DNA of 64,000 nucleotides. Origin: Klebsiella phage KP13-16. A program made the position numbers and the translations under genes. The stretch lies in sequence record OP617741.1; one strand, 5' to 3'. The notes under the pieces were generated by a model. It was given only the letters and a program-made list of their open reading frames with translations, searched no databases and was not told the origin of the DNA. This document shows positions 19,366 to 19,516 of the stretch, piece by piece. Position 1 is the stretch's first letter. Every line of letters starts with the position of its first letter.

Positions 19366-19516
19366 GTGTTCCCCACATGCGTGGGGATAAACCGTATAAC
19401 GATCACCTGATAAGAGAACGTGCTAAGGTGTTCCCCACATACTTGGGATAAACCGAATTGCCCCATTATCTATTGTGGTGGGTGAATGTGTTGCTTACAT
19501 GCGGGGGATTAATATT
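19366..19516 (+). CRISPR. phage-borne type I-E-like CRISPR mini-array (3 repeats, 2 spacers)
   Basis: R1 GTGTTCCCCACATGCGTGGGGATAAACCG (19366-19394): I-E hallmark ends with palindromic stem CCCCAC/GTGGGG. S1 33 nt TATAACGATCACCTGATAAGAGAACGTGCTAAG. R2 19428-19455 GTGTTCCCCACATACTTGGGATAAACCG (stem degraded). S2 32 nt AATTGCCCCATTATCTATTGTGGTGGGTGAAT. R3 19488-19516 GTGTTGCTTACATGCGGGGGATTAATATT (degenerate terminal repeat). AT-rich leader upstream. Confidence 0.7.

Follow-up and report, generated by a model that had tools for sequence, protein, structure and literature searches.

The window, i.e., the complete 64,000-nucleotide stretch of Klebsiella phage KP13-16 DNA that was analyzed (OP617741.1), carries a small CRISPR array with its leader, the gene for a predicted RNA-guided nuclease, two paralogous structured RNAs, and the remains of a second array, all in the same orientation (Table 1). 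The preliminary description of this DNA had placed three I-E-like repeats and two spacers at 19366-19516; these positions were confirmed, as were the spacer lengths of 33 and 32 nt. The TnpB-like gene, the structured RNA upstream, and the second array had been overlooked.

Table 1. Features of the array and nuclease locus in the window.
Feature	Position	Strand	Description
Promoter-like site	19107-19135	+	TTGACT-17 nt-TAAAGT; 9/12 consensus matches
Scaffold A	19138-19310	+	Structured non-coding RNA, ωRNA/tracrRNA-like; core 19174-19286, covariance-model match 121 bits
Anti-repeat	19299-19306	+	GGGAACAC, complementary to repeat positions 1-8 (GTGTTCCC)
I-E-type CRISPR leader	19312-19365	+	54 nt; aligns with the E. 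coli leaders that adjoin cas2 and queE
R1	19366-19394	+	29 nt, GTGTTCCCCACATGCGTGGGGATAAACCG; hairpin CCCCAC/GTGGGG intact
S1	19395-19427	+	33 nt
R2	19428-19455	+	28 nt; two substitutions and one deletion
S2	19456-19487	+	32 nt
R3	19488-19516	+	Terminal, degenerate; abuts the nuclease-gene ribosome-binding site GGAG (19517-19520)
TnpB/Cas12f-like RNA-guided nuclease gene (predicted)	19531-20790	+	419 aa
Scaffold B	20811-20925	+	Paralogue of scaffold A; covariance-model match 103 bits; 20 nt past the nuclease stop codon
Decayed second array	20932-21063	+	Different repeat family, GTGTATCCCGCG..GATGAACTG

Array, leader, and promoter

The first repeat has the I-E format, being 29 nt long with a 5' GTGTTCCCC, a 6-bp hairpin, and a 3' GGGGATAAACCG end. 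It aligns with the E. coli repeats beside cas2 and queE and differs from them only at compensating stem and loop positions, in agreement with the earlier assignment of an I-E-type repeat with a compensatory stem. The progressive decay toward the terminal repeat was also correctly described: R2 retains the outer 8 nt at each end intact with a weakened hairpin, and R3 is degenerate. The number of retained end nucleotides is 7.8 of 8, at either end, for repeats that precede a spacer; for terminal repeats it drops to 3.3 of 8 at the 3' end. The array period is 61 nt, and the spacers of relatives are mostly exactly 32 nt.

An upstream leader had been proposed as well, and the 54 nt preceding R1 are indeed homologous to E. 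coli I-E leaders, with leader plus repeat showing ~77% identity. Cas1-Cas2 anchors at leader positions -50 to -53 (PMC5224486); a GGTAGA at -54 to -49 spans this site and is spaced from the junction just as in two E. coli leaders; TTTAGA is found at the leader-repeat junction itself. Judged by its motifs, the leader follows the I-E format of an anchoring motif and an AT-rich stretch with a candidate IHF site up to the junction. The array is not a chance arrangement, because homologues with different spacers are placed identically with respect to the nuclease gene and because the 54 nt upstream align with E. coli I-E leaders. The preliminary description had allowed that the repeat family might be absent from host CRISPR loci, but both repeat and leader align with chromosomal I-E loci of E. 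coli. Its other proviso, that the unit might be part of a longer unrelated repeat common to relatives, was rejected: the closest relative, phage FBKp34, lacks the array and has another TnpB at the site.

The statement that there are no cas genes in the window is true of I-E cas genes, as tblastn with E. coli Cas3, CasA-E, Cas1, and Cas2 detected none in the 64 kb (best E 0.13), but it missed the TnpB/Cas12f-like gene directly downstream of the array. A promoter-like element had been placed upstream; a TTGACT-17-TAAAGT of this kind is present, 230 nt upstream and ahead of the structured RNA. The number of promoter-like sites in the region is not above that in shuffled sequence; TTGACT is kept at this position in all module-A loci, and the equivalent site carries a promoter annotation in FBKp34. 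This candidate site would drive transcription of scaffold A and the array, with the nuclease gene probably included.

Nuclease gene and scaffold RNAs

The nuclease gene begins 15 nt past the last repeat. Its predicted product has an intact conserved RuvC triad, D213, E303, and D399 (NADxN motif), a CxxC...CxxC zinc finger, and the Pfam domains Cas12f1-like_TNB, OrfB_IS605, and HTH_OrfB_IS605. It scores 223 bits against the NCBIfam guided_TnpB model (cut-off 100) and is far under the cut-offs of the C2c8 and Cas12f2 models, so that its NCBIfam class is TnpB and no named Cas12; PADLOC profiles match over the full length, with Cas12f PDLC01700 at 6e-71 and Cas12u4 at 6e-69. A dN/dS of 0.04-0.15 indicates strong purifying selection on the gene. 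There is no transposase-like ORF or tnpA among the neighboring genes, and no transposon ends are recognizable around the nuclease gene.

The scaffold is ~115 nt long, and copy A precedes the leader. Four helices are well supported and a fifth is weaker (62.6% paired); 87% of cells in the helices are paired, as against 37-50% in slid controls, and 12 pairs are altered on both sides, i.e., by compensatory changes. Scaffold B occupies the canonical ωRNA position of TnpB. The covariance model also matches directly after the stop codon in four loci that were not used in building it (L185, L083, L004, and L182). An Rfam scan of 18500-21500 returned only chance-level matches, with no family for scaffold or array, and the scaffold is absent from the E. 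coli chromosomal CRISPR loci, where only leader and repeat align. Loci in unrelated genomic contexts have conserved the sequence past the scaffold, which runs into the leader and array.

The 3' tail of scaffold A carries a putative anti-repeat, 12-23 nt past the scaffold, that is predicted to pair, always from position 1, with 6-8 nt at the 5' end of the repeat. Anti-repeat and repeat covary in five variants: GGGAACAC/GTGTTCCC, GAAGAT/ATCTTC, ATACAC/GTGTAT, ATAGAC/GTCTAT, and AACACA/TGTGTT. Cofolding predicts the duplex; in four distant modules (L172, L083, L185, and the first L182 module), the anti-repeat is unclear or absent. A second 6-bp duplex in the window, CUCUAC/GUGGGG, was discarded, as it is not conserved in downstream modules. 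The anti-repeat was also considered as a fixed ωRNA guide directed against host CRISPR repeats, and this was rejected because complementarity ends after 6-8 nt.

The second array has lost its leader by deletion in the window, its first hairpin is broken, and one 30-nt spacer remains; it is intact, with a leader, in L163-L165, L167, L169, and L171. Two to three modules whose repeats have distinct 3' ends (ATAAACCG, ATGAACCG/ATGAACTG, and GTGTTTCC) share one locus.

Relatives and spacer targets

Besides the window, roughly a dozen phage contigs and two from bacteria carry the module of scaffold, leader, array, and nuclease gene. The carriers include Salmonella phage KE23 (Seunavirus), the IMG/VR contig L003, and the Logan/metagenome contigs L163-L171, L182, L194, and L195, in which genomic contexts differ and the arrays hold different spacers at the same position relative to the gene. 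It recurs in relatives of 39-49% identity, namely L185, the Endozoicomonas contig L083, Photobacterium L198, and L183. The association of array and nuclease persists from 96% to ~39% protein identity, over phages of different subfamilies and bacteria, in the latter within defense islands. Spacers change at the leader end, while L003, L195, and L163 have the oldest one, at the trailer end, in common. Prevalence scans gave one contig in IMG/VR and three in JGI metagenomes, and the system is therefore rare in those collections.

Thirteen spacers had matches, and the 5' flanks of 12 of these were AAG, GAG, AGG, or ATG, the I-E PAM set; the full count is AAG seven times, GAG and AGG twice each, and ATG and GGG once each. 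One of the two GAG-flanked spacers has an AAG flank in a second target. S1 matches at 100% in ~13-kb islands at tRNA-Thr in E. coli chromosomes (5' flank GAG), and S2 matches at 100% in the 120-kb K. pneumoniae plasmid p2B30155, adjoining a capsid-like gene (5' flank GGG). The islands, at thrW, encode an integrase and a capsid-like gene and are candidate satellites of these phages. Overall, the targets are these tRNA-Thr islands, the large Klebsiella plasmid with the same genes, and ColE1-type plasmids; spacers of the upstream and of the downstream array match the same island family with AAG flanks. The mismatch positions in protospacers, being few and dependent on the database searched, do not separate a 20-nt from a 32-nt guide.

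Competing phages had been suggested as targets, and current databases do not support this, since 28 spacers from 11 loci gave no match among 50,697 phage genomes other than the KE23 array itself. What stands of that suggestion is that the spacers match other mobile elements. No self-targets were found in the window or in the relatives' loci retrieved. Two spacers match within a 211-bp stretch of an E. coli chromosome, and capture of host spacers by recombination was therefore considered; it was rejected because the matches are protospacers with PAMs inside the tRNA-Thr island, with no repeats around them. No window spacer was found within an E. coli CRISPR array.

Proposed system, alternatives, and known counterparts

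We think it reasonably probable that the locus of this virulent Klebsiella phage is a miniature type V-like system, phage-borne, in which the host I-E Cas1-Cas2 writes and the phage nuclease reads. The leader and repeats would be copies of enterobacterial I-E ones. When an I-E-positive cell is infected, host Cas1-Cas2 and IHF would now and then take 32-nt spacers from beside AAG-type PAMs and add them to the phage array next to its leader; this writing by host machinery is suggested by the I-E features of leader and repeats and by the spacer length, the leader-end turnover, and the protospacer flanks. The scaffold would act as a tracrRNA-like partner descended from the guide-RNA (ωRNA) scaffold bound by TnpB. 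Through pairing of its 3' anti-repeat with 6-8 nt at the start of a repeat, the scaffold would load the nuclease with a guide composed of the repeat and the downstream spacer; as the putative reader, the nuclease would then cut DNA in which the protospacer lies beside a 5' RAG-like motif, on the same side and in the same orientation as the I-E PAM. Its role would be the destruction of mobile elements that compete with or parasitize the phage in the infected cell. Several points count against this model: the anti-repeat duplex, with 6-8 bp, is on the short side for tracrRNA:crRNA pairing and is unclear or absent in the four distant modules, the S2 flank is GGG, the NCBIfam class of the protein is TnpB, and the repeat keeps all Cas6e/Cascade features, both the hairpin and the AUAAACCG handle.

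The last of these bears directly on who reads the array. Host Cas6e and Cascade-Cas3 might process and use the crRNAs against satellites and plasmids, the TnpB-like gene and its ωRNA then being a separate selfish or maintenance passenger; we judge this unlikely. The hairpin and exact 5' handle of the repeat, together with PAMs that in 12 of 13 cases are the four interference-proficient I-E motifs, mean that Cascade-Cas3 could be the reader, but acquisition alone demands the same repeat and PAM signatures, so that they favor neither reader. Mini-arrays on viral genomes that rely on host Cas proteins are well known (PMC11656645), and with I-E cas genes missing from the window the phage would depend on its host. 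The preliminary description was right in seeing a phage-borne I-E-type array with a leader; its purely host-processed mini-array did not take account of a nuclease gene and scaffold that are co-inherited. Processing by the host leaves unexplained the linkage of scaffold, array, and nuclease down to 39% identity and into bacterial defense islands, as well as the covariation of anti-repeat and repeat. In addition, the window repeats past both spacers have weakened or lost the hairpins that Cas6e needs and a Cas12-type reader does not. The usual silencing of I-E operons in E. coli and Salmonella counts against both models: it casts doubt on frequent acquisition, which the main model requires, and the usual silence of host I-E interference in these genera speaks against reading by Cascade.

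Both readers might be served, with the array feeding the phage nuclease and, where expressed, host Cascade, and with two repeat families matching the I-E systems of different host genera. We regard this as improbable. It would accommodate the retention of features of both readers, the presence in one locus of two to three modules with distinct repeat 3' ends, and the targeting by upstream and downstream arrays of the same island family with AAG flanks; however, the pairing of repeat families with host genera relies on what we take to be the Klebsiella I-E repeats, and the comparison with host repeats covered E. coli families only. Finally, the array might be non-functional or a decoy, either a host CRISPR fragment that was picked up or an RNA anti-CRISPR acting as a sink for Cas6e/Cascade, in both cases without a part in targeting. 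In favor of this are the short length of the array, its degenerating repeats, the evident decay of the window's second array further downstream, and the precedent of known single-repeat RNA anti-CRISPRs. Nevertheless, such a reading is disfavored and seems to us very improbable: spacers vary between phages, new ones enter next to the leader, and the matches lie in mobile elements and have the correct PAM; the spacers of the window match island protospacers with PAMs and not E. coli CRISPR arrays; and the repeat ends are kept before spacers (7.8/8 nt) but not at the 3' end of terminal repeats (3.3/8). As nuclease and guide-RNA-like scaffold are inherited with the array, it is probably neither a stand-alone decoy nor a purely host-dependent mini-array.

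Reading by the phage nuclease has a close counterpart in Cas12r-CRISPR of the Thermus Lalka phages, for which interference with an ARG PAM was demonstrated experimentally (bioRxiv 10.64898/2026.04.20.719267; PMC11437467). There too, a phage TnpB-family nuclease lies beside a mini-array with 29-bp I-E-like repeats and 31-33-nt spacers, adaptation genes are lacking and acquisition through host I-E was proposed, the 5' ARG-type PAM overlaps the host I-E AAG, the targets are small, tRNA-gene-associated integrative elements that may be satellites, and phages have their oldest spacer in common. The two are not the same system: the proteins (564 aa versus 419 aa here) have no detectable homology (BLASTP E 0.025 over 46 aa), and Cas12r needs no tracrRNA, whereas here an ωRNA-like scaffold with an anti-repeat stands ahead of each array. 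Furthermore, the Lalka array directly follows the gene without an I-E-like leader, which is present here, and its carriers are temperate phages of thermophiles rather than virulent enterobacterial myoviruses. Identity with the Cas12p "hacker" was also rejected, as only the RuvC/TNB end matches structure 9jfs (E 5e-9) and the protein has 419 rather than 500-700 aa.

With the TnpB-ωRNA systems (OMEGA, IS200/IS605) the locus shares protein size, RuvC triad, zinc finger, and a structured RNA directly 3' of the gene. It differs in that the scaffold appears to lead into a CRISPR leader and array and not into a fixed guide, in the want of recognizable transposon ends and of tnpA among the neighbors, and in the duplication of the scaffold upstream of the gene under its own candidate promoter. 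Cas12f and V-U4 (C2c9) systems likewise combine a TnpB-sized effector with an array; they are tracrRNA-dependent, as the present locus may be, and have PADLOC profiles that match here at ~1e-70 over the full length. C2c9 and C2c10 reportedly use the PAMs of the type I systems with which they co-occur. Unlike in those systems, the NCBIfam Cas12-specific scores are far under their cut-offs, the repeats and leader are true I-E copies and not type V, and the carriers are virulent phages.

Virus-borne mini-arrays (PMC11656645) resemble this one in their 1-3 spacers, host-like repeats, lack of a cas operon, and part in competition between elements, but they mostly target related viruses and stand alone, whereas this array is tied to a nuclease and scaffold and its spacers target islands and plasmids. 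The I-F CRISPR-Cas of Vibrio cholerae phage ICP1, directed against PLE satellites, is comparable in that a virulent phage turns adaptive CRISPR on a chromosomal parasitic island (here, candidate satellites), although ICP1 encodes a complete system including Cas1-Cas2/3 and the present locus only an array and a miniature nuclease. Type IV-A3 plasmid systems also lack Cas1-Cas2 and have arrays filled by host I-E adaptation (bioRxiv 10.1101/2023.06.23.546257); however, their effector is multi-subunit, nuclease-free, and plasmid-borne, in contrast to a single TnpB-like nuclease on phages.

Tentatively, and with somewhat less assurance than we would attach to a probable conclusion, we suggest that the locus represents hybrid immunity, in which the host writes memories through a faithful copy of its I-E leader and repeat and a phage nuclease of TnpB size reads them, its ωRNA scaffold having become a tracrRNA through a short anti-repeat against the foreign repeat. 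The locus would then show a type V system still in the course of its origin, through capture of a type I array and independently of Cas12r, with an anti-satellite and anti-plasmid function and a RAG PAM. If host Cascade is the reader instead, the locus is still a well-documented phage-borne I-E mini-array with what appears to be a functional leader. If the phage nuclease reads the spacers, it would be a clear natural TnpB-to-Cas12 transition through capture of the array of another CRISPR type, with the parts, i.e., ωRNA scaffold, emerging anti-repeat, and I-E leader, still recognizable; phages of two unrelated host groups, Thermus and Enterobacteriaceae, would have converged on the same solution from unrelated TnpB lineages. 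A nuclease of 419 aa that recognizes a purine-rich PAM would also be attractive in practice as a genome-editing tool. The carriers include genera used in phage therapy, and adaptive anti-satellite and anti-plasmid immunity would reach beyond ICP1 to virulent phages of Klebsiella, Salmonella, and E. coli.

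The mini-array and its nuclease gene

The preliminary description of the array, three repeats (R1-R3) with spacers of 33 and 32 nt and a degenerate third repeat, matches the sequence (Table), and the leader it placed upstream is borne out by the alignment of the 54 nt ahead of R1 (19312-19365) with the E. coli chromosomal CRISPR leaders beside cas2 and beside queE. Both E. coli leaders and that of the window conserve GGTAGA at -54 to -49, an interval spanning positions -50 to -53, the Cas1-Cas2 "integrase anchoring site" that E. coli was shown to need for integrating spacers (PMC5224486). 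Judged by its sequence, the window array is a genuine, leader-bearing array of type I-E. The claim that the window has no cas genes holds for those of type I-E, as tblastn with E. coli Cas3, CasA-E, Cas1, and Cas2 found no homologue in the window (best E 0.13), but it overlooked a TnpB/Cas12f-like nuclease gene just beyond R3.

The nuclease has the Pfam domains Cas12f1-like TNB, OrfB_IS605, and HTH_OrfB_IS605, is classified by NCBIfam as an RNA-guided TnpB-family endonuclease (223 bits; cut-off 100), and is spanned over its whole length by the PADLOC Cas12f and Cas12u4 profiles (about 1e-70). The family alignment shows conservation of RuvC residues D213, E303, and D399 (motif NADxN) and of the zinc-finger cysteines, and a dN/dS of 0.04-0.15 among phage copies marks this as a working gene.

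Features of the module, its relatives, and its targets (window coordinates unless a contig is named)
Feature	Coordinates	Description
Promoter-like site	19107-19135	
Scaffold A core	19174-19286	~115 nt; between promoter-like site and leader
R1	19366-19394	GTGTTCCCCACATGCGTGGGGATAAACCG
Spacer 1		33 nt, directly 3' of R1
R2	19428-19455	28 nt; two substitutions and one deletion
Spacer 2		32 nt, directly 3' of R2
R3	19488-19516	degenerate
Nuclease ORF (419 aa)	19531-20790	start fifteen bases 3' of R3, behind GGAG ribosome-binding site
Scaffold B	20811-20925	paralogue of scaffold A; starts 20 nt after nuclease stop codon
Anti-repeat GGGAACAC		repeat start GTGTTCCC; most upstream modules, L171 downstream
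Anti-repeat GAAGAT		repeat start ATCTTC; L171 upstream
Anti-repeat ATACAC		repeat start GTGTAT; L164, L165 downstream
Anti-repeat ATAGAC		repeat start GTCTAT; L169 downstream
Anti-repeat AACACA		repeat start TGTGTT; L182 second module
Shared trailer-end spacer	L003 2907-2938; L195 about 1740-1771 (reverse strand); L163 2869-2899	
~13-kb islands at tRNA-Thr beside proA	L180 9419-23039; L181 7975-21477	E. coli chromosomes

Beyond the nuclease gene, at 20932-21063, the window has a second array, whose repeats belong to another I-E-like family; this array has lost its leader and is decaying. In related Logan or metagenome contigs (L163-L165, L167, L169, and L171), the downstream array is intact and has a leader; its repeats are of the family GT(G/C)TATCCCGCG..GGGGATGAACCG, and a scaffold copy and the second leader precede it.

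Scaffold RNA and anti-repeat

Comparative analysis shows that a predicted structured scaffold RNA, an ωRNA in position and ancestry, lies 5' of each array. Its structure was scored on an alignment of 18 copies, using slid partners as the control: four helices were well supported and a fifth was weaker (62.6% paired), with 87% of cells in the helices paired versus 37-50% when partners were slid. Twelve pairs changed on both sides, and several pairs occur as three or four pair types; part of this signal is one split, that of the upstream copies from the downstream ones. When relatives outside the alignment were searched with a covariance model of these copies, the scaffold was found directly after the nuclease stop codon in contigs L185 (49% identity), L083 (39%), L004 (37%), and L182 (58%). 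The model also locates it 5' of the gene in Photobacterium damselae L198 (41%). A leader-like stretch, 29-nt repeats, and 32-nt spacers come after the scaffold in L083, L185, L182, L198, and L183. TnpB ωRNA scaffolds of OMEGA systems are encoded after the stop codon of the gene. The scaffold is absent from the E. coli CRISPR loci in the alignment with E. coli chromosomal loci. L182 (988-3293; nuclease 58% identical) harbors three scaffold modules, two upstream and one downstream, and each upstream module has its own array with a different repeat variant.

That a predicted anti-repeat covaries with its repeat is shown by comparison of the modules: 12 to 23 nt past the scaffold is a short complement of the cognate repeat start, always in register with repeat position 1, which changes along with the repeat (five variants; Table). 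Its spacing is stable relative to the scaffold but ranges from 21 to 66 nt to the leader-repeat junction, which argues that it is an RNA feature of the scaffold and not a DNA feature of the leader. In cofolding, the anti-repeat is predicted to form an 8-bp duplex with R1 and with R2. Four distant modules have no clear complement to the repeat start.

Distribution, spacer turnover, and targets

The module order (promoter, conserved non-coding RNA, leader, 2-5 repeats, nuclease gene) recurs in Salmonella phage vB_SEnST11_KE23 (Seunavirus, Vequintavirinae), one IMG/VR contig, and about ten Logan/metagenome contigs of 2-146 kb with phage genes; the nucleases of these carriers are 96% to 58% identical to that of the window, and gene neighborhoods differ. 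Bacterial relatives of about 40% identity, with scaffold and 29/32-nt array, occur in P. damselae (L198 9638-11368) and an Endozoicomonas MAG (L083 3001-5645). In Photobacterium, the neighbors of the locus are McrBC-like, methyltransferase, and HipA genes, as is typical of defense islands.

The nearest sequenced relative of the window, and a close one, is vB_KpM_FBKp34, a virulent Klebsiella myovirus of the Stephanstirmvirinae that is 97.6% identical to it across 16 kb. At the site of the module (L002 4640-6332), FBKp34 carries a different, DRDxN-type TnpB (374 aa, 30% identity), without an array and with weaker copies of a related scaffold on its flanks; of the module, the promoter and the 5' half of the scaffold are still present there. 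The comparison suggests that the CRISPR module was replaced by an ordinary IS-type TnpB in FBKp34, or the reverse. In the window, 19 tRNA genes (16344-23764) cluster around the locus. ORF 21961-22503 (180 aa; weak zinc-finger match) overlaps tRNA-Met 21941-22016, the equivalent gene class is annotated in KE23 as an HNH endonuclease, and a homing-endonuclease-type insertion into the tRNA cluster is suggested. After ORF 18736-19059, a GC-rich hairpin with a T-run behind it (CCCTGGCAGAAATGCTGGGGTTTTCTTTC; 19066-19098) looks like a terminator between the upstream gene and the module's promoter; a simple scan did not flag it.

Spacers vary from locus to locus, and most are exactly 32 nt long, so that the arrays have a period of 61 nt. 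A trailer-end spacer (CTGGACTGTATGCACGAAC...) is common to L003, L195, and, partly, L163, and leader-end spacers are unique, which is the polarity expected of leader-end acquisition. Repeats followed by a spacer retain 7.8 of 8 nt at each end, against only 3.3 of 8 at the 3' end of terminal repeats. Comparison among loci shows an I-E-type leader and an array that turns over, whose spacers with predicted I-E PAMs match mobile elements.

Competing phages had been proposed as targets, yet, outside the KE23 array itself, 50,697 phage genomes contain no match to any of 28 spacers; nor does any of the 28 match the window itself. Thirteen spacers match bacterial replicons. Window spacer 1 has a 100% match in a ~13-kb island at tRNA-Thr beside proA in several E. 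coli chromosomes, 180 bp from the site matched by a spacer of the L167 downstream array, and spacer 2 has a 100% match in the 120-kb K. pneumoniae plasmid p2B30155, 2.4 kb from the match of an L163 spacer beside a capsid-like gene. Spacers of L003, L168, L170, L165, and L163 match islands of the tRNA-Thr family, which is targeted from at least six different phage arrays. The genes of these islands include an integrase, a DnaD-like replication initiator, a major-head-protein-like gene, and one for a 715-aa protein. We regard the islands, which we did not find described in that role, as candidate satellites of Vequintavirinae and Stephanstirmvirinae phages. The target of both L164 spacers is a single gene next to an IS element, in a different E. 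coli chromosome and counted apart from this family. Thousands of small enterobacterial plasmids have a match to the shared trailer spacer, the oldest one, in their ColE1-type origin region; a 6.5-kb Klebsiella plasmid is matched both by it and by the newest L195 spacer.

On the spacer-sense strand, the 5' flanks of the 13 protospacers are AAG (7), GAG (2), AGG (2), ATG (1), and GGG (1), 12 of them falling in four of the 64 trinucleotides; one GAG-flanked protospacer is flanked by AAG in a second target. The interference-proficient PAMs of E. coli I-E are AAG, GAG, AGG, and ATG, and E. coli Cas1-Cas2 favors AAG.

Which effector reads the spacers

We lean toward the phage nuclease as the reader. 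Host Cas1-Cas2 and IHF would write spacers into the phage array, the scaffold would act as a tracrRNA-like partner, and "repeat + downstream spacer" would be the guide of the nuclease; the geometry fits because I-E and TnpB/Cas12 alike read a 5' non-target-strand motif with the guide 3' of the repeat. All retained I-E features are also required for acquisition, so host Cascade-Cas3 alone could instead read the spacers, but this main rival leaves the long co-inheritance of the array with nuclease and scaffold, and also the anti-repeat, unexplained, and we judge it rather unlikely. Dual use of the array, by the phage nuclease and host Cascade, is more doubtful still.

No paper on this enterobacterial-phage system was found in the open-access literature. 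The closest analogue is Cas12r of Thermus Lalka phages, which has an ARG PAM and for which adaptation through host I-E has been proposed (bioRxiv 10.64898/2026.04.20.719267; Viruses 2024, PMC11437467). Cas12r shares a TnpB-family nuclease, 29-bp I-E-like repeats, and tRNA-integrating elements as targets; however, the protein has no detectable homology to the window nuclease, needs no tracrRNA, and is without an I-E leader, whereas the window module has a scaffold with anti-repeat and an I-E leader, and the likeness is thus convergent. The Cas12p "hacker" is a different protein, larger than the window nuclease. According to the PAMPHLET preprint, C2c9 (V-U4) and C2c10 systems have the same PAMs as co-occurring type I systems. 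Because the TnpB/Cas12 survey of Altae-Tran et al. left out loci with arrays linked to non-type-V systems, the window nuclease lineage may have been overlooked so far, or placed under V-U4.

The finding is real and richer than the preliminary description. We class the locus as a miniature, phage-borne CRISPR system, derived from TnpB, that would depend on a type I module for adaptation, and its importance hinges on which effector reads the spacers.
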